Shown: positions 27,268 through 61,694 of the stretch, piece after piece
Position numbering within the stretch: the first letter of the stretch is position 1
How the letters are laid out: every line of letters begins with the position of its first letter
From: an uncultured Gammaproteobacteria bacterium
Lineage (GTDB): Bacteria; Patescibacteriota; Patescibacteriia; Magasanikbacterales; GWA2-37-8
Direction of reading: 5' to 3'
Assembly (NCBI GenBank): GCA_964510885.1
Contig: CAZEDL010000007.1
Location: 13,999 to 77,998 of the forward strand
DNA: 64,000 nucleotides
Notes under the pieces: generated by a model
What the model was told of the DNA's origin: nothing
Database searches by the model: none
The model's input: only the letters and a program-made list of their open reading frames with translations
Position numbers and translations under genes: made by a program

Positions 27268-28851
27268 CTACACCAAACTCCTCCCCGTCATCTCCGGCGG
27301 CTGAGGCAGACCCATAAGCGATAATACCGTCGGCGCCACATCGGCCAAAATTCCAACTGGTGATAACAAGCTAAGATCGCCTTCCAGGGCATCTCCCGAC
27401 GGCCCAGCCGTGCCCTGAAAATCTTTGCCGATAATCAAGAGCGGCACCGGGCTCGTGGAATGTTCTTTATCGATCTCGCCCGTCTGCAAATTAAGCACAC
27501 ATTCGGCATTGCCATGATCGGCTGTCATCACCACCACGCCGCCTTTGGCGAGCGTATGATCTACCACCTCTTTAAACGCCTGATCACACGCTTCAATCGC
27601 TTTGATACTTGCTTCGAGGTTCCCAGTGTGCCCCACCATATCCGGGTTGGCAAAATTCATTGCCACGAAATCAAACTGCCCACTATCGATCGCTTTGGCC
27701 GCTTCTTTAGCCACTGCACGCACCGACATTTCAGGCGCGTCGGCATAACTAGCCACCTTGGGCGAGGGCACGAGCACACGCTCTTCGCCAGGGAATGCCG
27801 TTTCTACCGTCCCGTTCAAGAAGAACGTCATGTGCGCATACTTTTCCGTCTCGGCAATATGAACTTGCTTTAAGCCGGCCTTACTCACTGTCTCGGCCAG
27901 CGAATTAGTCACAATAATCGGCGGATAGGCCACAATCACCGGCAATTCTTTTTCATATTCCGTCATGGTAACAAACCATAATTTATCATAATATGTGCGC
28001 TCAAATTTGTGGAATCCCGGCAACACAAACGCCTGCGTCAATTGCCTAGCCCGATCCGGACGAAAATTGAAGAATATAACGGCATCACCATTTTCAATCC
28101 TAGCCACCGGTTTCCCGCCGTCGGTAAGTACCGTCGGCACGAATTCTTCATCATAATTTTTTTGTTCATAGCTTGCTTCCACCGCCGCCACCGGATCAGT
28201 CGCCGTGCGTTCGGCCACCCCCTCAGTCATTGCCCGATAGGCTTTTTCTACCCTGTCCCAACGATTGTCGCGATCCATAGCATAATACCGGCCAGATAGA
28301 GTCGCGATCTTGCCTACCTTGAGACTTTTCAGTTTCGCCTGCAACTCTTTCACTATACCAAGGCCCGAATTAAATACCATGTCACGCCCATCAAGAATAG
28401 CGTGCACGAATACTTCTTTGGACAGTCCTTGAGCTTTACATAATTCCAAGAGAGCAGACAGGTGTTCATCGCTGGCATGTACATTACCCGACCCAACCAG
28501 CCCCACCAGATGCAATTTACTCTTATTCGCGCGCACTTTTTCAACTGCTTTCAAAAATGCCGGATTGGTAAAAAACTCTTGACTGCTAATCTCTTGGTTA
28601 ATGCGCGGACACGATTGATAATATACGCGGCCCGCCCCGATATTCAGATGCCCCACTTCAGAATTTCCCATTTCTTGCGGCATGATGCCAACTTCCATCC
28701 CCGAGGCATAGAGCGTCATCACCGGATAATTTTTCACGTACGATAAAAAATTCGGAATAGTAGCACGAGTGATAGCATTCCCCTCGCTGTCCGGGGCTAC
28801 ACCCCAGCCGTCAAAGACGGTCAGCACTACTGGTTTATAATTATAAGGCAT
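27268..28851 (-). CDS. gpmI: 2,3-bisphosphoglycerate-independent phosphoglycerate mutase (copy 1)
   Basis: MPYNYKPVVLTVFDGWGVA..., catalytic-Ser region GNSEVGHLNIGAGR, C-terminal phosphotransferase domain. 527 aa. Confidence 0.9.
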   Translation of the reverse strand: MPYNYKPVVLTVFDGWGVAPDSEGNAITRATIPNFLSYVKNYPVMTLYASGMEVGIMPQEMGNSEVGHLNIGAGRVYYQSCPRINQEISSQEFFTNPAFLKAVEKVRANKSKLHLVGLVGSGNVHASDEHLSALLELCKAQGLSKEVFVHAILDGRDMVFNSGLGIVKELQAKLKSLKVGKIATLSGRYYAMDRDNRWDRVEKAYRAMTEGVAERTATDPVAAVEASYEQKNYDEEFVPTVLTDGGKPVARIENGDAVIFFNFRPDRARQLTQAFVLPGFHKFERTYYDKLWFVTMTEYEKELPVIVAYPPIIVTNSLAETVSKAGLKQVHIAETEKYAHMTFFLNGTVETAFPGEERVLVPSPKVASYADAPEMSVRAVAKEAAKAIDSGQFDFVAMNFANPDMVGHTGNLEASIKAIEACDQAFKEVVDHTLAKGGVVVMTADHGNAECVLNLQTGEIDKEHSTSPVPLLIIGKDFQGTAGPSGDALEGDLSLLSPVGILADVAPTVLSLMGLPQPPEMTGRSLV

Positions 28852-28946: not shown

Positions 28947-30521
28947 TCACCAGAGCACCCTCCCCGTCATCTCTCCCGGAATGGCTATCTCCATACTTTT
29001 TAAAACACTCGGCGCCACATCAGCCAAACTGCCAGCGCGCAAGTGTTGTCCGCCCTTTAAGCCAAGCGCCGTGAGCCGCTCCGGCGGAGCCACCACCACA
29101 AATGGCACGGGATTACGCGAATGCTCAGTATCTATTTCTCCGGTTTTAATATTTTTCATCTCTTCGGCATTGCCATGATCCGCAGTGATAAAAACGGTAG
29201 CACCTGTAGCAAGGGCAGCACTAACAACTCGTTCTAAGGCTACATCGAGCACCCTAATCGATTCTTCTGTCGCTCCTAATTGGCCAGTATGACCAAGCAT
29301 ATCCGCATTGGCAAAATTTGCCGCTAACAAATCATACTGCTTGCTCTCGAGCGCTTTAATCAAGGCTTCGGCAATAGCAGCTGCCTGCATGGCTGGCTTA
29401 TCGGTGAAACGCTCCACACTATCAGAGGGTATTTTTAACCAGGTTATATTGCCTGAATGATCGGCATAACCACCATTAAAAAAATAAGTTATATGGGCAA
29501 ATTTTTCCGATTCAGCCACATATAGTTGTCGCCGCTCACCAAGCTGATTCACGAAGCCGCCCACCACATCGCGACTCGGAAAAGCCGTCAAGACCCCCGG
29601 CAAATCAGGGCCAAAATCCGTCATCGCCACAAATCTAATATGTGCCGGCATCCGGACACGGTCGAAGCTGGCCGCATTAGCCTTTGTGAAATCTGGCTGA
29701 ACAAAAGCTTTAGTTAGCTGGCGCGCCCGGTCGCTGCGCAAATTAAAAAAGAATACTACATCATTATCCTCCACCGGGCCAACTGGCTTGCCTTGGTCAG
29801 TTACCATCACTGTTGGCGCAACAAACTCATCGCTCTCGCCGCGATTATACGCCTCGGCGATAGCCGCTTCAGCCGTAGTAGTCGTATGCCGAGCCGAACC
29901 ATTAACAATTGCATTATAGGCCTGCTCCGTGCGCTGCCAATTTTTATTTCGATCCATGCTATAGAGCCGCCCACAAATACTAGCGATTTGTTCGCTCCCA
30001 TGACAGCGATCGCGTAATTTTTTTAGATACTGCAGAGCATCATGCTCACCTGAATCGCGTCCATCGGTAAATAAATGTAAATATACTTTTGTTATCCCTT
30101 CTCGTGACAACAGATCAAGCAGTGCATACACATGCTCGGGCGAACTGTGGGCACTATTGTGGTTGCTAAGCAAGCCCATCACATGGGCCGCCGTATTATA
30201 TTTTTTAAGATGATGCACCGCTTCATGAAATGCTGTATTTTTAAAAAATGTACCGTCTTCAATCGCCTCCGAGACATATAACGCATCCTGCTTCACCACC
30301 CGGCCCGCCCCCAAATTTAAATGTCCGGCTTCGCTATTACCCTCTTGCCCCTCGAACAAACCAACCGCCGCACCACTGGCCGCAAGCTCGGTATGCGGAT
30401 ACGTCTTTAACCACTCAAAAAAATGCGGTGCCGTGCGGGCCGAAATAGCTGATACATCGTGGTCAGTGGCTGGGCAGCCCCAGCCGTCTAATATCAAGAG
30501 CAACGTGGGAGAAGGTGTCAT
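28947..30521 (-). CDS. gpmI: 2,3-bisphosphoglycerate-independent phosphoglycerate mutase (copy 2, diverged paralog)
   Basis: MTPSPTLLLILDGWGCPA... GNSEAGHLNLGAGR. 524 aa, the same domain order as copy 1 but a clearly diverged sequence. Confidence 0.9.
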   Translation of the reverse strand: MTPSPTLLLILDGWGCPATDHDVSAISARTAPHFFEWLKTYPHTELAASGAAVGLFEGQEGNSEAGHLNLGAGRVVKQDALYVSEAIEDGTFFKNTAFHEAVHHLKKYNTAAHVMGLLSNHNSAHSSPEHVYALLDLLSREGITKVYLHLFTDGRDSGEHDALQYLKKLRDRCHGSEQIASICGRLYSMDRNKNWQRTEQAYNAIVNGSARHTTTTAEAAIAEAYNRGESDEFVAPTVMVTDQGKPVGPVEDNDVVFFFNLRSDRARQLTKAFVQPDFTKANAASFDRVRMPAHIRFVAMTDFGPDLPGVLTAFPSRDVVGGFVNQLGERRQLYVAESEKFAHITYFFNGGYADHSGNITWLKIPSDSVERFTDKPAMQAAAIAEALIKALESKQYDLLAANFANADMLGHTGQLGATEESIRVLDVALERVVSAALATGATVFITADHGNAEEMKNIKTGEIDTEHSRNPVPFVVVAPPERLTALGLKGGQHLRAGSLADVAPSVLKSMEIAIPGEMTGRVLW

Positions 30522-41229: not shown

Positions 41230-41353
41230 TTCGTCAAAATAACTTTACAAAATTAGACAATTACTCATCTCAACCAGCCAAGCCGTTAAACCAATACCGA
41301 CTCGGCTGGTGGAGCAATCTCGCTTCTACCAGACCGCTACCAAGGAGGTAGTC

Positions 41354-41893
41354 ATGATCCGACAGAACGCACGCACGATCGCCACCCTCAGCATCGCCCT
41401 CGGCCTCACAGGATGCGGGGCTGATGCACCCGGCGGGGGCGGCAACACCTGCACCGACTTCGACGTGAGCGTCGACTCGACGAGCCCGAGCGGCACGGTC
41501 ACGGCCGGACAGCAGGCGGACGTGATCCACTTCAACGTGAAGGGCTGCACGGGCTTCACCCTGATGAACCTCTTCACCTGGGCTTCCGGGAACAGCTCCC
41601 CCTACCTGGACGGAGTCCCCTACCAGGTGATCGGTCTCAGCGACGGCATGATCTACCAGAACTGGCAGACCGCGAACGGAGCGGCCCACCTGGGCGCCGC
41701 GGACGACACCAACTACGTGGCCCTCTCCACCGGGTCGGTCTACAAGCTGGTGCTGGGCCTGCCGGCGGGCCTGCCCTCTGGTACCACGATGCAGTGGCAC
41801 CCCGCCGGCTTCCACTACAAGGACACCGACGGCATGACCCACGACGGCAGCGCACCGCCCACCGCGGTCGGCAACACGCTGACGATCAAGTAG
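41354..41893 (+). CDS. Hypothetical lipoprotein encoded by a high-GC, high-GC3 island
   Basis: AGGAGG SD then ATG. MIRQNARTIATLSIALGLTGCGAD (signal plus LTGC lipobox). GC3 is near 90% (atc/aac/gac/ctg codons), unlike host genes. A GC-rich terminator follows. Confidence 0.65.
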   Translation: MIRQNARTIATLSIALGLTGCGADAPGGGGNTCTDFDVSVDSTSPSGTVTAGQQADVIHFNVKGCTGFTLMNLFTWASGNSSPYLDGVPYQVIGLSDGMIYQNWQTANGAAHLGAADDTNYVALSTGSVYKLVLGLPAGLPSGTTMQWHPAGFHYKDTDGMTHDGSAPPTAVGNTLTIK

Positions 41894-41997
41894 TCGCGGT
41901 CCAAAGCGCCGCGATGAGCAAGGGCTGACCAGCGCCGTTCGCTGGCCAGCCCGCCTTTCTCTAAAATCATAAACAACGACTTACGATTTGAGAGAAT

Positions 41998-42895: not shown

Positions 42896-43744
42896 CTAGA
42901 CGCTTTCCGAAACTTTCAACGCGCGTTTTTCTTTTTTCGGCGCAGATTTTTCTGCCGATTTTTCTTTGACTGGAGCATCACTCATCAGTGGCATAGCCGC
43001 TTTAGCCGGCATCTCTTTCATTTGCTGAACTGGAGCTTCAGCTTTAATCTTGGCCGCAATCTCTTTACCTTCAATCACCGCATCAGCCATGAGATTGGCC
43101 ATCATTTGAATCGAATTTACCGCATCATCATTAGCTGGAATGATATAGGTGGCTTTAGTCGGGTCCACATTAGTATCACAGACAGCGACAACTGGCACAC
43201 CCACGCGGCGAGCTTCGGTCACTGCCGTTTTTTCAACACGCAGGTCGGCAATAAACAACGCATCTGGAATGCCATTGATACCGATAAGACCGCTCAGGTA
43301 CTTATCCATCTTGGTCAATTGTTTTTTGAACGTTGATTGTTCTTTTTTGGTATATTTTTCAATTTCACCCGTGGCTACCTGATCACGCAGCATCTTATAT
43401 TTCTTCAACCGGCGCTGGCATTCTTCAAAGTTGGTCAGGAGACCACCAATCCAGCGTTCTACCAAAAACGGCATACCGGCGCGTTCAGCCGCGGCTTTAA
43501 TAATACTGCGGGCCTGGCGCTTGGTGCCAACAAATAAAATCACTTTGCCCTGACTAGCCATGGTTTTCACAGCGGCCAAGGTTTTTTCTAATTCTTCGGT
43601 CGTTTTGTCTAAATCAATGACGTGGATACCATTTTTGGTTCCAAAAATATATGGCTGCATTTTAGGATGCCATTTGGATCCCTGGTGGCCGAAATGCACG
43701 CCGGCCTTAAGCATCTCAAGTAGAGACGGTAACTGTTGTGACAT
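42896..43744 (-). CDS. rpsB: 30S ribosomal protein S2 (with C-terminal extension)
   Basis: LLEMLKAGVHFGHQGSKWHPKMQPYIFGTKNGIHVIDLDKT... Confidence 0.9.
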   Translation of the reverse strand: MSQQLPSLLEMLKAGVHFGHQGSKWHPKMQPYIFGTKNGIHVIDLDKTTEELEKTLAAVKTMASQGKVILFVGTKRQARSIIKAAAERAGMPFLVERWIGGLLTNFEECQRRLKKYKMLRDQVATGEIEKYTKKEQSTFKKQLTKMDKYLSGLIGINGIPDALFIADLRVEKTAVTEARRVGVPVVAVCDTNVDPTKATYIIPANDDAVNSIQMMANLMADAVIEGKEIAAKIKAEAPVQQMKEMPAKAAMPLMSDAPVKEKSAEKSAPKKEKRALKVSESV

Positions 43745-43859
43745 AGGTTGTGTCCTTATTACTTCCTCTCAGCCTAACCCCGCGAGTGGTCGCAGGGAGG
43801 ATACAAACGGGCTGATGAGTGATAAATAATACTGCCTAAAGGGCAGTTATAACCCCCGG
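43745..43859 (-). promoter_or_regulatory. Structured 5' leader of rpsB-tsf (candidate S2 autoregulatory region)
   Basis: About 110 nt between the promoter and rpsB. Hairpins ACTGCCCTTTAGGCAGT and CCCTGCGACCACTCGCGGGG. SD GAGGAAG. Confidence 0.35.
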
Positions 43860-43888
43860 AGTATATAAGATTAGCCAAAATAAGTCAA
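43860..43888 (-). promoter_or_regulatory. Sigma70-type promoter for rpsB-tsf
   Basis: On the minus strand, TTGACT-17nt-TATACT. Confidence 0.65.
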
Positions 43889-43962
43889 GTAGAGGATTGA
43901 CTTATTCAATGGATATGATAAGGTGCGCTGTCCAGAATCTGGACACAGAGGAAAAAAATAAG

Positions 43963-44661
43963 ATGAAGATGGTTAAAATTTTTTTTCCGGGCTATGCCCA
44001 CGACGACACTGCTCACTTTCAACTTCAAGATCGGGCAATCCATTACCGATCAAAAAGTTGGTTGGGCTGGCAAACCCTTGGCAATAAAGCCGAGGTGAGC
44101 GCTCGACTCCTCCACGGAATATTGAATAACCTAGCAGACGATCAGGGTGTGGAAGTTGTAGCCCACTCGCTCGGCTGCCTAATAGCCGTGTGGGCGATCA
44201 CCCTCCTGCCTGCAGACAAGCGCAAACAGATCACCCAGCTCACCCTAGTAGCACCCACCGGCTTCTGTAATCGCCGACGGTTCCTGACCTTCTGGTTCCT
44301 GTTCATCCTGGTCGGCTGGCGCGGACATCTAGCCGCCCTCCTAGGGCTCTTGTTCCCAAAACACGGTGCCCTGGTGCCGCCTTCGGTAGCAACGCGCCTG
44401 TATGGGCACCGGCATGAAACCGGAGAAATAGTCCACGACTCGTCTGTTGCATTTCTCCAGCTGGTGCTCGGGCTCTACCCGAATGCCTTGGCCAGACTGT
44501 TGGCTCAGGGCTTCGACCGGGACAAAATTACCATGGTCGGTGGGACGCACGATGCCTGCGTGAATGCCCAGTGGGTCCACGACGAAGCCGCCACGGCTGA
44601 GACGAGTTACCACGAGCTGCCAGTCGCCCACTGCGGCCACCCCACCACCTTCCCCTACTGA
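43963..44661 (+). CDS. Alpha/beta-hydrolase-fold protein (esterase/lipase-like), moderately GC-rich
   Basis: The start is moved to MKMVKIFFPGYAHDD (GAGGA SD 11 nt upstream; the ORF track starts at 43897). Nucleophile elbow VVAHSLGCLIAV. C-terminal HDACV...CGH region. Confidence 0.55.
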   Translation: MKMVKIFFPGYAHDDTAHFQLQDRAIHYRSKSWLGWQTLGNKAEVSARLLHGILNNLADDQGVEVVAHSLGCLIAVWAITLLPADKRKQITQLTLVAPTGFCNRRRFLTFWFLFILVGWRGHLAALLGLLFPKHGALVPPSVATRLYGHRHETGEIVHDSSVAFLQLVLGLYPNALARLLAQGFDRDKITMVGGTHDACVNAQWVHDEAATAETSYHELPVAHCGHPTTFPY

Positions 44662-44764
44662 GGCCAACCCTCAATTCCTCACGAGACCCTGCTCTCGCTT
44701 CCCCCACTGCCCCAATACTATTGAGACAGTGCAAGGAGACCAATTTCGAGAGCAGATAAAAAAT

Positions 44765-44796
44765 AAAATCGATCCCTCACATAGGGGATCGATTTT
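44765..44796. terminator. Bidirectional intrinsic terminator after the hydrolase gene
   Basis: AAAATCGATCCC-tcacatag-GGGATCGATTTT with a T-run. Confidence 0.7.
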
Positions 44797-44888
44797 ATTA
44801 ATCAATAAACCGCAGTCCTATACAAAAACTTATTTTTGTATAGAATATATTTACCAGAAATTTTTCTGGCAACTCCAGGAGTTTGATA

Positions 44889-45134
44889 ATGTTACGTAAA
44901 ATTGTCAGTTCGTTTATAATGATCTGTCTGTGCATGGGAGGTTCGAATAACGACATCCCAAGCGCCGGCGGGCAGAACGCACAAGCCTGCATGTGCATCT
45001 GCAAACCCGGCTGTGACACAGGAGAATACTGTGTGCAGAAGGGCTGCAGCTGTAGCTGCAAAAAAATCCCTACTCCTCCTAACGAGCCGCTGCCGGCACC
45101 CGAAAGTAAACCGGTGTGCGAGACACAGAAGTAG
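44889..45134 (+). CDS. Secreted Cys-rich small protein (81 aa; 12 Cys in ~50 mature residues)
   Basis: AGGAG SD. MLRKIVSSFIMICLCMGGSNNDIPSAGGQNAQA (signal, AxA site), then CMCICKPGCDTGEYCVQKGCSCSCKKIPTPPNEPLPAPESKPVCETQK. The ORF track starts 6 nt earlier at TTG. Confidence 0.55.
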   Translation: MLRKIVSSFIMICLCMGGSNNDIPSAGGQNAQACMCICKPGCDTGEYCVQKGCSCSCKKIPTPPNEPLPAPESKPVCETQK

Positions 45135-45143
45135 GACTGCATC

Positions 45144-45188
45144 GGGCCCGGCAGCCAGCTGGTTGCCGGGCCCCCTTCTCTTTATTAT
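45144..45188 (+). terminator. GC-rich intrinsic terminator after the Cys-rich peptide gene
   Basis: GGGCCCGGCAGCCAGC-TGGTTGCCGGGCCC followed by CCTTCTCTTTATTAT. Confidence 0.6.
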
Positions 45189-45283
45189 AGAGGCCGATGC
45201 TTGCCCAGCTAACTCTTTTAGAGTAAACTAACCACGCCTGACCAGGCGTTTCTTTAATTGCAGAAGCCACCCATTTTTACCAT

Positions 45284-47359
45284 ATGACCGAAAAAAACTC
45301 CTCCGCAGATTCCACCTATAGCGCCAAAAACATTACCGTTCTCGAAGGCCTTGAGGCCGTCCGCCGCCGACCCGGCATGTATATCGGCTCCACCGGCAGT
45401 GTTGGCTTGCACCACCTGATTTGGGAAGTCGTCGATAACTCTATCGACGAAGCCATGGCCGGCTACGCCAGCAAAATTTACATCACCCTTCTCCCCGACC
45501 ACACCGTGGAAGTGCGCGACAATGGCCGCGGCATCCCGGTGGATATCCATCCGCAGAAAAAAATCAGCGCCCTCGAAATTGTCATGACCGTACTCCACGC
45601 CGGTGGCAAATTTGGCGACGGCGGCTATAAAATCTCGGGTGGTCTGCATGGCGTCGGCGCCTCGGTGGTAAACGCCCTGTCTAAACATATGAAAGCCGTG
45701 GTGCATCGCGACGGCGAAATTTGGGAACAAGAATATAAAATCGGCGTCCCAGTGAAAAAAGTACGGAGCATCGGCAAATGCAAAGACACAGGCACCACCA
45801 CCACCTTCCGCCCCGACGATACCATTTTTGAAACCGTAAACTTTGAATGGAAAACCATTATCGATCACCTGCGCCAGCACTGCTACCTCACCAAAGGCAT
45901 CCACATGATCATCAGCGATCAGCGCAGCGCCGAAGAAAAAAAAGCAGATTCGACCGCCCTTGATTTCCCCAACCCAACCTACCAATTCTATTTCGAAGGC
46001 GGCGTCGGTTCATACGTCAAATACCTGAATCACAACAAAGAAGCCAAACACGACAATGTTTTTTATATCGAAAAAGAAGCCGAAGGCGTGCATGTCGAAG
46101 TGGCACTCCAATACAACAACGATTTTTCCGAACTGCTCTACGCCTTCACCAATAATATCTACAACCCAGATGGCGGCACCCACGTAGCCGGCTTCCGCAC
46201 CGCCCTCACCCGCAGTCTCAACACCTATGGTCGCAATAAAGGTTTCCTCAAAGAAAAAGATGCCAACCTGAGCGGTGAAGATGCGCGCGAAGGATTGACC
46301 GCAGTTGTCTCAATCAAAATCCGCGAGCCGCAATTCGAAGGTCAGACCAAAGGCAAGCTCGGCAACACCGAAGCCAAAACTGCCGTGGAAACCGTGCTCG
46401 GCGATGCCCTCTTGGTCTACCTCGAAGAACACCCCAAAGACGCCGAAGCCATCATCGGCAAATGTTTGCTCGCTGCCCGCGCTCGCGCCGCTGCCAAAAT
46501 TGCCCGCGATACTATTTTGCGTAAAGGCGCCCTCGAAGGCTTCACCCTCCCTGGAAAACTCGCCGATTGCTCCAGCAAAAATGCCGAAGATTCAGAATTA
46601 TTCATTGTCGAAGGAGACTCGGCCGGTGGCTCTGCCAAACAAGGCCGCGATCGCCACACCCAGGCCATTCTCCCGCTACGCGGTAAAGTATTGAACGTCG
46701 AGCGCGCGCGCCTTGATAAAATTCTTGGCAACAACGAACTCAAATCGCTCATCATCGCCCTCGGCACCAACATCGGTGAACAATTTGATATCACCAAACT
46801 CCGCTATCACCGCATCGTCATCATGACCGATGCCGACGTTGACGGCGCCCATATCCGCACCCTGCTCCTCACTTTCTTCTACCGCTACTTCCCCGACCTC
46901 ATCAACCAAAGCCATGTCTATATTGCGCAGCCCCCACTCTACAGCCTCAAGTATGGCAAAGAAATGAAGTACGCCTACAACGACCAAGAAAAAGCCGAAG
47001 TCCTGTCTGACATCGAAAAAACCAAAGCTGAAAAAACCGCTGCCAAAGTTGAAAAATCTAAAGCCGCTGCCGCGGAGGCCGGTGAAGACATTGCTACCGA
47101 AGCTGGCGACGACACCGAATCACTCGTCATTGGTGGGGTCAAAGTAAATATTCAGCGCTATAAAGGTTTAGGAGAAATGAACCCCGAACAGCTCTGGGAA
47201 ACCACCATGGATCCCACCCGCCGCCTGATGAAACTAGTCACGGTCGAAGACGCCGCGGTTGCCAACGAAACCTTCGAAATCTTGATGGGCGACGAAGTCG
47301 AGCCCCGCAAAAAATTCATCCAGACGCATGCTAAGCAGGTGCAGAATTTAGATATTTAA
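45284..47359 (+). CDS. gyrB: DNA gyrase subunit B
   Basis: LEAVRRRPGMYIGSTG, LHHLIWEVVDNSIDEAMAGY (GHKL ATPase), TOPRIM EGDSAGGSAKQGRDR. 691 aa. Confidence 0.95.
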   Translation: MTEKNSSADSTYSAKNITVLEGLEAVRRRPGMYIGSTGSVGLHHLIWEVVDNSIDEAMAGYASKIYITLLPDHTVEVRDNGRGIPVDIHPQKKISALEIVMTVLHAGGKFGDGGYKISGGLHGVGASVVNALSKHMKAVVHRDGEIWEQEYKIGVPVKKVRSIGKCKDTGTTTTFRPDDTIFETVNFEWKTIIDHLRQHCYLTKGIHMIISDQRSAEEKKADSTALDFPNPTYQFYFEGGVGSYVKYLNHNKEAKHDNVFYIEKEAEGVHVEVALQYNNDFSELLYAFTNNIYNPDGGTHVAGFRTALTRSLNTYGRNKGFLKEKDANLSGEDAREGLTAVVSIKIREPQFEGQTKGKLGNTEAKTAVETVLGDALLVYLEEHPKDAEAIIGKCLLAARARAAAKIARDTILRKGALEGFTLPGKLADCSSKNAEDSELFIVEGDSAGGSAKQGRDRHTQAILPLRGKVLNVERARLDKILGNNELKSLIIALGTNIGEQFDITKLRYHRIVIMTDADVDGAHIRTLLLTFFYRYFPDLINQSHVYIAQPPLYSLKYGKEMKYAYNDQEKAEVLSDIEKTKAEKTAAKVEKSKAAAAEAGEDIATEAGDDTESLVIGGVKVNIQRYKGLGEMNPEQLWETTMDPTRRLMKLVTVEDAAVANETFEILMGDEVEPRKKFIQTHAKQVQNLDI

Positions 47360-47362
47360 GCT

Positions 47363-47788
47363 ATGAGTGAAAATCCAACCCAATATGAACTACAAAAAAA
47401 ACAAGCCCTCACTCAAATCGTCGCCGAAACAGGTCTTAGTGGCGACTACTTTAACGAGTTCGGACAAATTTTGCAGGCTTTTTTATCACTTGATCGCACT
47501 GAAGCACTAGATTGGATTGCCGAGCTGGCCAAGACTAGTCCCCTTAAAAAATATTCAGATCGTTTTTCAAACGAAGTGTATCCCGAATTTTCGATCACCG
47601 AAAAAAATGCCGCTGCTATCGCTCGCCTCGATGACATAATCGACGAAATTAACGCGTTACTAAGGCAACCCAAGCTTGATATTGATCGCTGCCTAACTCT
47701 CTGCGCTGAAGCCGAGCTGCTTGTTTTCGGAAAAAAAGATGGACCAGGCAGGACAACAGAGGTTGCTAACTATCTTAATCAAGCCTAG
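47363..47788 (+). CDS. Hypothetical protein (141 aa)
   Basis: It starts 4 nt after the gyrB stop. No recognised family. Confidence 0.45.
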   Translation: MSENPTQYELQKKQALTQIVAETGLSGDYFNEFGQILQAFLSLDRTEALDWIAELAKTSPLKKYSDRFSNEVYPEFSITEKNAAAIARLDDIIDEINALLRQPKLDIDRCLTLCAEAELLVFGKKDGPGRTTEVANYLNQA

Positions 47789-53740: not shown

Positions 53741-53816
53741 GGGCCTGTAGCTCAGGGGTTAGAGCGCCACCCTTATAAGGTGGATGTCGATGGTTCAATT
53801 CCATCCAGGCCCACCA
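53741..53816 (+). tRNA. tRNA-Ile with a UAU anticodon, CCA encoded
   Basis: GGGCCTGTAGCTCAGGGGTTAGAGCGCCACCCTTATAAGGTGGATGTCGATGGTTCAATTCCATCCAGGCCCACCA. The body is near-identical to bacterial tRNA-Ile(GAU). Anticodon stem CCACC/GGTGG, loop CTTATAA, positions 34-36 TAT. Confidence 0.8.
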
Positions 53817-59487: not shown

Positions 59488-60924
59488 TTAATCGTGTGAA
59501 ATGCCAAACTTTTTAAAATATACATCCTGATCTTTCTGAGTACTGCTTCCAAAAAACTGACTAATGTCGCTAATTTTTGCCGCTTCAATTTGCATAAGCA
59601 CGCCATCGCGGACATCTTCCACTTTCAAAAAATAACTATTGGGAATATCTTTCCAATGCTGAGCAAAAAAGAAATCGTCCCCTAAATCTTCACCCAACCT
59701 ACCAATAAAATGTCGTTGTCCTCGGCCAATATGGAAGCTCTCATTCATAAAAAAAGACACAACCAAACCCCGAAACGTACCACCCTTAACCTCACAATCT
59801 TTAACGGCTTTATCGAGTATGTCATTATCAACACTTACAACAAAATTTTGTAGTTTTTCATCTACATTTGAAGGCTTCAACCCAAGCGAAGCAATTGACG
59901 AATTAGTCATCGACACTGAAAAACTAGTAGTTTGCGTACAAATCCCGTAGAGATCACCGATACTATTGACAGGCGGATCATTCCATTCACGCGTAAGAAA
60001 ATCTGGAAATAATTCTTTGGCCAAAGAATTATGAGTTACCGTTATAAAAATATTGCCTTCTTGACAGCTATATTCATTACTGCGCGCATCAAAAAGACAT
60101 GATGAATTTTTATTCCCCTTACGGTCGCAATAATCACCCCAACATGTTTGCTTGCCTAAATCTTTTACATAAAAACGCTTACCACAATAAAAGTTACGCT
60201 CATTTTTATCTTCCGGCCTCTCATTGAAAAATGTTGCACTGTATCTAATATCCGACGGAGGATTTTCAATCGGCAGCGACTGCGCTTCGGTACCTCGCGC
60301 AAAAGCGAAACTTTGAAGATTCTTTATCTTATCTGACATTTGCGAACAAAATTTCGGCATAATTGCCTGTGGCTTCAGCATCCACACGCTCGGCAACCGG
60401 AAATTCACCAAATTGGGATTAATCGTATTGAGTATCACATACGACATGTAGGCAATAAACAGCCCAATCAGCGCGCCCCCAATCCGCGTCTTCGCACCGC
60501 TAATCACTTCAGAACTGCCTCCCGAAACTGCCCATTGGATCCCAGACACAATCAGCACAATTACCGCCACCACCCCCGCAAGGCCAATCGCATACCGGTA
60601 CATCTGTAGAATAAACACACCAAGATCAGCAAATTTGCGCTGGCCGCCAAACGAAATAGAGGTTACGGTTTGCCCACCCGGCAGACATTTACCCCACTCT
60701 TCACCCGGACAATTTTTCAGGTCCGGCACCCAGCCATCTTTTAAATCTTCGTCAGAAGCGTTCGGATTAAACGCGCGCCGAGAATCAACACAGTCATTTT
60801 TCTTCCAACACAGCGGATTAAACTCCGGTATAGGTATAAGCGGTTCCTGTGCCAATGCCAACCCTGGCAGCAGTGTGGCGAGCACTATACCCACCAAAAA
60901 ACCTGTCAAAATAAATCTCCGCAT
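59488..60924 (-). CDS. Hypothetical secreted/membrane protein with Cys-rich extracytoplasmic regions and a central 2-TM hairpin
   Basis: Signal peptide MRRFILTGFLVGIVLATLLPGLALAQ. CWKKNDC...NCPGEEWGKC. TM pair VFILQMYRYAIGLAGVVAVIVLIVSGIQW / GALIGLFIAYMSYVILNTI. Later C-rich stretch CGKRFYVKDLGKQTCWGDYCDRKGNKNSSC. The start is moved to the second Met to avoid overlapping the upstream gene. Confidence 0.5.
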   Translation of the reverse strand: MRRFILTGFLVGIVLATLLPGLALAQEPLIPIPEFNPLCWKKNDCVDSRRAFNPNASDEDLKDGWVPDLKNCPGEEWGKCLPGGQTVTSISFGGQRKFADLGVFILQMYRYAIGLAGVVAVIVLIVSGIQWAVSGGSSEVISGAKTRIGGALIGLFIAYMSYVILNTINPNLVNFRLPSVWMLKPQAIMPKFCSQMSDKIKNLQSFAFARGTEAQSLPIENPPSDIRYSATFFNERPEDKNERNFYCGKRFYVKDLGKQTCWGDYCDRKGNKNSSCLFDARSNEYSCQEGNIFITVTHNSLAKELFPDFLTREWNDPPVNSIGDLYGICTQTTSFSVSMTNSSIASLGLKPSNVDEKLQNFVVSVDNDILDKAVKDCEVKGGTFRGLVVSFFMNESFHIGRGQRHFIGRLGEDLGDDFFFAQHWKDIPNSYFLKVEDVRDGVLMQIEAAKISDISQFFGSSTQKDQDVYFKKFGISHD

Positions 60925-60935
60925 AAAATGTAGAG

Positions 60936-61694
60936 CTAAAAACCTTGTAAAAATGTATCCCACACGGCAAATGGGATCACCCCTTCTACTTTTTCTCCGT
61001 TGATAAAAAAGGTCGGGGTCCCGCGCACGCCAAAGCGGGAACCATCCACATAATCACGATTCACTGCCGTACGTGCTGCCGGCGCTGCCAGACAGGCCGA
61101 CAACACAGCCCCATCAAGATCATTAGCCTCGACAATCTGGAGTTGGGTAGCCGCATCAAGCTGATCAGGCAAGATATCCTGCTTTGCAAACAACCAATCC
61201 TGCACCGGCCAATACTTGCCCTGAGCGCCAGCGCAATAAACCAATTCCGACAACTGCGAGGCTCCCGGATGGGTAGTCTCTACCGGAAAATGGCGCATAA
61301 TATATTTAATTTTAGTTGGGTATTTTTGCAAAATCTGTTTAATTATCGGGGCTGCCTCTCTGCAATTGGGGCATTTAAAGTCAGTAAACTCGACAATCGT
61401 AAGCGGCGCCCCGCCATTGCCCTGATACGGACTGCTTGTATTCTCCAAAATCGCCCGCTCTGTAGCAGATAGTACGGAAGTCCGCAGGCTGTCGGCTTGA
61501 TTCCCAGTACTAAAGCCGGCAAAAAGGCCCTGTGACAAGCCGGTAGACTGACCACTTCGGATGTCACGCCAAAATCGAGCTGTAATCAAGATGAACAAAA
61601 AAACGGCCGTCGCTACAAAGACTGCTAAAATTAGCAATAAAATCCCCCACCACCGCCAATACCATGAGCGAGGTACCGAGGTCATTTCCTCCAT
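60936..61694 (-). CDS. DsbA-like thiol-disulfide oxidoreductase with N-terminal TM anchor
   Basis: Thioredoxin-fold CxxC active site TDFKCPNCREAAPII. N-terminal TM WWGILLLILAVFVATAVFLFILI. Confidence 0.75.
   Translation of the reverse strand: MEEMTSVPRSWYWRWWGILLLILAVFVATAVFLFILITARFWRDIRSGQSTGLSQGLFAGFSTGNQADSLRTSVLSATERAILENTSSPYQGNGGAPLTIVEFTDFKCPNCREAAPIIKQILQKYPTKIKYIMRHFPVETTHPGASQLSELVYCAGAQGKYWPVQDWLFAKQDILPDQLDAATQLQIVEANDLDGAVLSACLAAPAARTAVNRDYVDGSRFGVRGTPTFFINGEKVEGVIPFAVWDTFLQGF

Follow-up and report, generated by a model that had tools for sequence, protein, structure and literature searches.

A putative exported, cysteine-rich orphan peptide encoded in a small transcription unit of its own beside gyrB in a Patescibacteria genome

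What might be the role of a small, cysteine-rich open reading frame (ORF) that stands in a transcription unit of its own beside housekeeping genes and resembles no known protein? The question is raised by a locus just upstream of gyrB in contig CAZEDL010000007.1 of GenBank assembly GCA_964510885.1, assigned by GTDB to the Magasanikbacterales (Patescibacteriota), of which a stretch of 64,000 nucleotides (the window) was analysed. In our view the ORF is very probably genuine, an orphan gene whose product is a small exported Cys-rich peptide. With regard to its role, the interpretation that we favour, at somewhat better than even confidence, is that of a lineage-restricted, monocistronic gene for a Sec-exported and probably disulfide-cross-linked surface or extracellular accessory factor, which occupies a conserved slot with variable content. 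That the product is exported, where it is cleaved, whether it forms disulfides and that it acts outside the cell are all inferred here. The gene and the parts of its product are as follows.

44889 to 45134, plus strand: ORF of 81 amino acids plus stop, with its ATG at 44889; translation MLRKIVSSFIMICLCMGGSNNDIPSAGGQNAQACMCICKPGCDTGEYCVQKGCSCSCKKIPTPPNEPLPAPESKPVCETQK.
44877 to 44881, plus strand: Shine-Dalgarno (SD) sequence AGGAG, 7 nt 5' of the ATG, found by direct reading.
Residues 1 to 17/19: predicted signal peptide.
Residues 20 to 33: Gly/Asn/Gln linker.
Residues 34 to 57 (nucleotides 44988 to 45059): core of eight Cys with the spacing CxCxC-x3-C-x5-C-x4-CxCxC.
Residues 58 to 81: Pro-rich tail with Cys77.

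The ORF is credible because an SD sequence, a signal peptide, a promoter and a terminator combine with a second signal-peptide ORF in the same slot of a relative, the groundwater metagenome contig L083. An earlier note on this DNA had proposed that a small, Cys-rich, secreted peptide is encoded in a mini-locus of its own, bounded by terminators, and the predicted features agree with it, with an SD sequence and a tripartite signal peptide in place and a putative promoter and terminators conserved in L083. In both alleles an SD-preceded ORF covers most of the interval from promoter to terminator, and the chance of such open frames, estimated from base composition, is ~0.026 for the 81 codons of the window and ~0.077 for the 57 codons of L083. 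Both peptides also pass a signal-peptide heuristic that is passed by only 2.3% of the ATG ORFs of the window and by 0.7% of those in shuffled sequence. It is highly probable that the slot encodes exported peptides, and the identical 81-amino-acid product is predicted by the gene calls on two Logan contigs. A 114-amino-acid antisense ORF (44798 to 45142) was considered and rejected, having no such signals and no conservation.

The ORF holds 11 Cys in all (residues 13, 15, 34, 36, 38, 42, 48, 53, 55, 57 and 77), the highest Cys content among window ORFs of at least 40 amino acids, compared with an average of 0.85% in the long ORFs. Cys composition alone is not decisive, because spurious antisense ORFs of the window reach 7 Cys in 72 to 80 amino acids. 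Within the core, 8 of the 24 residues (33%) are Cys, arranged in part as two CxCxC motifs, and a single Tyr is the lone aromatic residue; the mature peptide as a whole is ~15% Cys and has a net charge of 0 (6 K versus 6 D/E).

The signal peptide has R3 and K4 in its n-region, a 12-residue h-region from I5 to M16 and small residues at positions 15 to 19, and so shows the charged n-region, the h-region of 10 to 15 residues and the small residues at -3 and -1 that characterize type I (Sec) signal peptides. The h-region does not have the length that a stable membrane anchor needs. Read by the -3/-1 rule, cleavage at residues 17 to 19 (CMG/G or GGS/N, the slash marking the cut) appears likelier than cleavage after AQA (residues 31 to 33), which had been named earlier as the site. 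AQA lies 17 residues past the end of the hydrophobic core, and cleavage is therefore placed near residues 17 to 19, the more usual position. The count of ~48 residues after AQA stands, but these contain 9 Cys and not the 11 attributed to them; the other two, Cys13 and Cys15, sit in the h-region of the signal peptide. A lipoprotein was also considered and rejected: there is no lipobox of the form [LVI][ASTVI][GAS]C, with Cys13 following I-M-I and Cys15 following I-C-L, neither with G, A or S at -1.

The elements that surround the gene are listed here in order, together with the three neighbouring genes that delimit the locus.

42896 to 43744, minus strand: rpsB; tsf, also on the minus strand, likewise lies upstream of the hydrolase gene.
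43909 to 44661, plus strand: alpha/beta (serine) hydrolase gene (Pfam PF06821 Ser_hydrolase, E 7.9e-6; DUF676, E 2e-4).
44689 to 44755, plus strand: extended hairpin of ~67 nt in the 3' untranslated region (UTR) of the hydrolase unit, directly 5' of its terminator (L083 1009 to 1072).
44762 to 44799: intrinsic terminator of the hydrolase unit, a perfect 15-bp stem flanked by an A-run and a T-run (fold z -6.7).
44818 to 44843: perfect 11-bp palindrome CTATACAAAAA/TTTTTGTATAG (fold z -5.2).
44819 to 44846, plus strand: promoter-like TATACA-16-TAGAAT for the peptide gene, overlapped by the palindrome.
44851 to 44872, plus strand: hairpin CCAGAA/UUCUGG close to where the peptide mRNA is predicted to begin (z -1.2 in the window alone, not significant).
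45144 to 45173, plus strand: intrinsic terminator of the peptide unit, 13 bp with 11 GC pairs followed by CCUUCUCUUU (z -5.4).
45234 to 45249, plus strand: element of the gyrB leader, a small hairpin plus the conserved motif GGCGTTTCTTTAATTGC, where the frame shared with L083 has its right edge.
45284 to 47359, plus strand: gyrB.

The placement of the locus beside an alpha/beta-hydrolase gene, between rpsB and gyrB, was correctly described from the start, and so was the GC-rich palindromic terminator 3' of the gene. What had been called a strong bidirectional terminator upstream is indeed a perfect 15-bp hairpin, bidirectional in form only, as there is no convergent gene for it to serve; it is retained in L083 with one compensatory pair. 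The perfect 11-bp palindrome likewise exists, and it overlaps the predicted -35/-10 region. The suggested role as an operator was rejected for want of conservation, L083 having kept the left arm (the -35 region) but not the right one. At the position of the hairpin 44851 to 44872, L083 carries an equivalent, CCAGG/CCUGG, with a z of -2.7. For the terminator at 45144 to 45173, L083 preserves every one of the 13 pairs; 2 of the changes are double-compensatory and 3 are one-sided but compatible. As a separate observation, the SD sequence (GGAG) of the peptide gene could pair with the adjoining upstream CUCC to form an ACUCC/GGAGU hairpin (44873 to 44885, plus strand), which would sequester the SD sequence and is absent in L083.

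The comparison with relatives places the locus in context. The best gyrB matches come from metagenome-assembled genomes of Patescibacteria, or Candidate Phyla Radiation (CPR), with partial GyrB sequences at 67 to 74% identity annotated as Candidatus Magasanikbacteria. The closest GTDB representative, L003, has a GyrB 82% identical and is collinear with the window through GAPDH, tsf, rpsB, gyrB, secE, nusG and L11 to a queuosine-synthesis gene. Its rpsB-gyrB spacer is 282 bp, however, and window positions 43801 to 45323, with hydrolase and peptide genes, have no counterpart there. The hydrolase-peptide block is an insertion relative to this closest collinear genome, and no target-site duplication or terminal repeats were found at the insertion ends. 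Other close gyrB relatives have different genes upstream of gyrB (a 320-amino-acid protein of unknown function, FtsW). The hydrolase-peptide-gyrB block was found elsewhere in only one population, represented by L083 and by the near-identical copies L089 and L090 (the latter labelled as groundwater metagenome). A scan of JGI metagenomes with a conserved 17-mer of the gyrB leader gave 120 mostly random matches, of which only L147 is real, and this is the same record as L089.

GyrB of L083 is 89% identical to that of the window, and the order of elements is the same: hydrolase, structured 3' UTR, terminator, promoter, 5' hairpin, SD sequence, small ORF, terminator, gyrB-leader hairpin and gyrB. 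The L083 promoter reads TATACA-17-TATATT at the same place, and the SD sequence AAGGAGAGG lies 4 nt 5' of the ATG. The ORF that follows encodes 57 amino acids (MKKLVACLVAASLIFASNGFAEDKKPTPPPKENKAKEVIKKIIRSIADASAKERTES), with a canonical signal peptide and then a Lys-rich part that contains no Cys; its N-terminus gives weak matches to the signal-peptide regions of Asr, Spy and MarB. Between window and L083 it is the regulatory frame that has been conserved, not the coding content: alignment z is 11.9 from hydrolase stop to peptide ATG and 10.9 from peptide stop to gyrB ATG, as against 2.1 for the ORF nucleotides and 0.8 for the peptides. Without a Cys framework in common, the window and L083 products cannot be alike in fold or chemistry.

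The hydrolase gene bears on how this divergence arose. At 4-fold degenerate sites, window and L083 are 60% identical in gyrB but only 36% (0.36) in the hydrolase gene (window 43909 to 44661 versus L083 261 to 986), which is the random expectation. The neutral sites of the cassette are therefore saturated, and it follows that an unconstrained peptide would become unalignable by drift, so that diversifying selection or replacement is not required. In passing, cassette and gyrB may differ in their divergence history, through recombination or through stronger codon constraint in gyrB. Among L083, L089 and L090 there are 29 (and 12) single-nucleotide polymorphisms, all in gyrB and almost all synonymous, with 0 in the 1.5 kb of hydrolase and slot; the ratio of nonsynonymous to synonymous change in the slot is not estimable for that reason. 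This distribution suggests that gyrB reads of co-existing strains were co-assembled and that the cassette derives from a single strain.

The conserved ~67-nt hairpin at the end of the hydrolase unit deserves separate mention. Window and L083 fold independently to the same architecture (z -6.2 and -2.8, respectively; with the terminator, -9.0 and -4.8); the outer stem UGCUCUCG/CGAGAGCA does not vary between them, and 4 double-compensatory pairs are seen in the inner stems. No credible Rfam match was obtained for this hairpin or for the other flanking structures. It could be a 3'-UTR stabilizer, a small RNA or an attenuator of read-through into the peptide gene.

When these elements are placed together, a course of events can be proposed for the product. 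The 81-residue pre-peptide would be exported via Sec and cleaved by signal peptidase I around residues 17 to 19, to release a charge-neutral mature peptide of ~62 residues that would consist of a flexible Gly/Asn/Gln linker, the 24-residue core with 8 Cys and a Pro-rich tail to which the ninth Cys belongs. Once exported, the core would most likely be oxidized to a small, disulfide-cross-linked beta module, and it is conceivable that the odd Cys77 or the CxCxC motifs could make intermolecular links, either to the peptide itself or to other surface proteins. The peptide may then serve as a strain-specific accessory surface or extracellular factor, with an expression slot (promoter, 5' hairpin, SD sequence and terminator) that appears to travel with the alpha/beta-hydrolase gene beside gyrB.

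A capacity for disulfide formation is encoded in the same window.

60936 to 61694, minus strand: DsbA-like gene (Thioredoxin_4, E 7.7e-25), with a transmembrane anchor and a CPNC motif.

A check of its co-occurrence with the peptide had been proposed earlier. The gene is confirmed, but a local link is not, because it lies 16 kb from the peptide gene and is co-operonic with another exported protein: it overlaps by 28 nt a gene at 59488 to 60963 (minus strand) for a 491-amino-acid exported protein with 12 Cys. Therefore, only a genome-wide disulfide capacity is supported. The 491-residue protein has a signal peptide and a pilin-like hydrophobic segment (GGSS...GAK...ALIGLFI), and together with the DsbA-like gene it looks like a dedicated oxidase-substrate pair.

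Several known systems offer partial parallels. CPR genomes have been described as recurrently encoding secreted, Cys-rich proteins that vary among strains, and those of Peribacteria resemble the window peptide in host group, signal peptide, high Cys content, strain-level variation and the presence of one disulfide-bond protein in the genome, but are ~1,655 amino acids long on average and clustered, whereas the window peptide is a singleton of 81 residues (PMC4736985). In the Anopheles lectins CTL4 and CTLMA2 a signal peptide is soon followed by CXCXC, which forms promiscuous intermolecular disulfides between chains of these secreted proteins (PMC6811590). By analogy, this style of linking could offer a way for a peptide with an odd number of Cys to cross-link, although the lectins are eukaryotic and carry a C-type lectin domain, while the window peptide has two CxCxC motifs, no further domain and no homology to them. 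Disulfide-ladder beta-hairpin peptides (theta-defensins, protegrins, hepcidin) are strongly cationic. The symmetric CxCxC...CxCxC of the core could similarly pair antiparallel strands by cross-strand disulfides, and low-confidence AlphaFold2 models place strands on both motifs; unlike the ladder peptides, the window peptide has no net charge, and its models gave no significant fold match. Allelic pheromone or bacteriocin cassettes such as comC and agrD also combine conserved flanks (here z ~11 to 12) with a small exported peptide that cannot be aligned (here z 0.8 to 2.1), but near the window locus there is no cognate gene for processing, export or sensing, and only two alleles are known.

Database searches leave the peptide without relatives. 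A word-indexed search of 5.8 billion proteins returned only the peptide itself, and a full HMMER scan of 1.84 billion cluster representatives added two spurious matches to repeat proteins (an ankyrin-repeat protein and an archaeal surface protein). No family was matched in Pfam at E<=1, metallothioneins (Metallothio_Pro, PF02069) included, nor in NCBIfam at E<=10, precursor families of ribosomally synthesized and post-translationally modified peptides (RiPPs) included; phmmer against the PDB at E<=10, tblastn against phages and plasmids and a scan of JGI metagenomes with the peptide likewise found none. Paralogues, which had been proposed for a search, were absent by tblastn from the window and 88 loci. 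The candidate identities offered earlier, namely a metallothionein, a bacteriocin or an adhesin fragment, thus have no sequence or fold match behind any of them.

A number of observations weigh against the favoured interpretation. The 9 Cys of the mature peptide are an odd number for full disulfide pairing; CXCXC is uncommon outside Zn sites (PMC6811590), and cores rich in CxC characterize metal-thiolate proteins more than they do disulfide scaffolds (PMC4862169). Single-sequence AlphaFold2 models have low confidence (pLDDT, the predicted local distance difference test score, of 55 and 62); the two runs put beta strands on CMCIC, EYCVQK, CSCSCK and VCET, and a Foldseek search of the PDB with these models gave a best match at E 3.6 and a TM score of 0.27, which is not significant; models this weak say little for or against a cystine-stabilized mini-protein fold (knottin, defensin, hepcidin or EGF-like). 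For codon usage the ORF scores -12.4 bits, where 81-codon windows taken from the long ORFs in the window score 25.8 +/- 10.4; its synonymous-only score is ~2 standard deviations low, and one antisense frame scores similarly; such atypical usage fits a young or acquired gene. No homologue exists through which purifying selection on the peptide could be seen. The NCBI annotation gives a 66-amino-acid product from the internal Met16 (ATG 44934), which drops the signal peptide. Conserved flanking hairpins around an ORF without conservation in relatives had been named in the earlier note as the pattern that would speak against a gene, and this is formally what is found in the sole relative. We consider that the pattern is better read as variable coding content than as non-coding sequence, because both alleles carry an SD-preceded ORF that opens with a signal peptide. 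The variable slot nevertheless rests on a single comparison, since only two slot alleles exist, and fast divergence appears inseparable from cassette replacement given the saturation described above.

The main rival to a disulfide-linked factor is an extracellular metal-thiolate binder, that is, an exported or surface metallothionein-like peptide whose core would remain reduced in anoxic groundwater, the habitat typical for these bacteria, and would there chelate Cu(I), Zn, Cd or a different thiophilic metal; we regard this as unlikely. Its appeal lies in the core, which has the composition of a metallothionein (small, ~30% Cys in CxC/CxxC clusters, few aromatics), and in the groundwater origin of the related locus. 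Among metallothionein clusters CXC predominates, the yeast and nematode proteins also contain CXCXC, and BmtA/SmtA, MymT and the fungal Cu-metallothioneins share with the peptide a short Cys-dense CxC/CxCxC core that is rich in Lys and almost without aromatics (PMC4862169). The window peptide departs from them in having no profile match, a Pro-rich tail, no metal-gene context (with no metal-resistance or -transport gene within +/-15 kb and no metal-handling gene among the ORFs scanned between 27 and 63 kb) and a Sec signal peptide, which the SD-supported start yields. To our knowledge, the known bacterial metallothioneins are cytosolic and have no signal peptides. In addition, the genome encodes an extracytoplasmic DsbA-like oxidase, and the L083 allele has no Cys in its mature peptide, from which it follows that the slot is not dedicated to metal handling. 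A cytosolic variant of this idea, in which the 66-residue product from Met16 is a metallothionein-like protein that is never exported, would accord with the NCBI record and with the absence of a signal peptide in classical metallothioneins, but is very improbable: the Met16 start is unsupported, with no SD-like motif upstream of ATG 44934 to set against the AGGAG before ATG 44889, the Logan gene calls give 81 residues, L083 shares the layout of SD sequence plus signal peptide, and no metallothionein family is matched.

It might also be argued that the ORF does not function as a protein-coding gene and arose by chance, or very recently de novo, in a conserved transcribed spacer of which only the transcript or the flanking structures matter. 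The lack of a homologue in any database searched, the codon usage with its equally good antisense frame and the conservation of flanks but not of the ORF are all compatible with this, yet it is a distinctly improbable account, as it would require both the open frames (~0.026 x 0.077) that fill most of the interval behind an SD sequence and the two signal-peptide-like N-termini (base rate 0.7 to 2.3%) to be coincidental; moreover, a role of the RNA only would predict a conserved interior, and none was found between window and L083. A bacteriocin or RiPP precursor (a Sec-dependent bacteriocin, ranthipeptide, sactipeptide or similar) directed against competitors seems the least probable of all. 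Bacteriocin and pheromone loci typically show allelic diversity between flanks that are conserved, and the locus has this diversity and is small, secreted, Cys-rich, strain-specific and hypervariable. Against it, the ORFs scanned between 27 and 63 kb, and thus within +/-15 kb, include no radical S-adenosylmethionine (radical-SAM or SPASM) maturase, no lanthipeptide synthetase (LanB/C/M), no peptidase-ABC exporter and no immunity gene, being housekeeping genes or without such domains. No small membrane immunity ORF is supported next to the peptide gene, whose neighbours are the hydrolase gene and gyrB, there is no precursor match in NCBIfam or Pfam, the mature peptide lacks the positive charge expected of class II or Sec-dependent bacteriocins, and a Sec signal peptide takes the place of a leader peptide.

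Beyond the exported and probably disulfide-linked accessory factor, it could be speculated, as a tentative extension that we think more doubtful than not, that the locus is a dedicated secreted-peptide slot of a CPR lineage, with a regulatory frame, a structured RNA just upstream included, under purifying selection and unrelated exported peptides that are replaced or diversify extremely fast between close relatives. Its products, equally tentatively, would be a unique 8+1-Cys peptide in the window and a Lys-rich helical peptide in L083. If this were true, the slot could be seen as a locus of strain identity or of host interaction in episymbiotic ultra-small bacteria, or as one where genes are born de novo. 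A life attached to other cells is presumed for CPR bacteria (Patescibacteria), whose exported, strain-variable, Cys-rich proteins are prime candidates for mediating that contact. The locus would be a minimal example, a delimited transcription unit of ~300 nt whose peptide content is wholly different between two close populations, and it could form a tractable case for the turnover or de novo origin of accessory surface or secreted factors; the spacing of the core would be a new cysteine framework. So far, with two alleles known, it is an ordinary small ORF whose signals are unusually clean, an orphan within a loose class of small secreted Cys-rich peptides.

The companion hydrolase has no signal peptide and a transcription unit of its own. 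Among 5.8 billion proteins it has one homologue, P0006, which is 58% identical and encoded in the syntenic L083; neither hydrolase nor peptide matched any PADLOC or PHROGs model. On the other side of gyrB, a 141-amino-acid ORF (47363 to 47788, plus strand) starts 4 nt past the gyrB stop and has no match in Pfam, PADLOC or PHROGs. It is absent in L003, L084 and L085, where secE directly follows gyrB, and gyrB is therefore bordered on both sides by lineage-specific insertions.

Further observations were made elsewhere in the window. A GC-rich island at 41300 to 41900, between a methyltransferase gene and tsf (65 to 68% GC versus 48% for the window), contains overlapping ORFs of ~190 amino acids on both strands without a Pfam match, and L003 has a non-alignable GC-rich gene at the same position. 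Two full-length genes for cofactor-independent phosphoglycerate mutase (iPGM_N + Metalloenzyme) stand in tandem at 27268 to 28851 and 28947 to 30521, both on the minus strand, which is unexpected for a small CPR genome. A tRNA-Ile with a UAU anticodon is encoded at 53741 to 53816 (plus strand; ARAGORN; Rfam tRNA, 74.8 bits); in most bacteria AUA is read by a lysidine-modified CAU tRNA, so that a UAU anticodon represents uncommon decoding. Finally, a gene for a 23S rRNA intervening-sequence protein (PF05635; 51079 to 51444, minus strand) lies in a ribosomal-protein/queuosine neighbourhood, and its homologue in the relative L086 (8282 to 8674) is located between nusG and L11.

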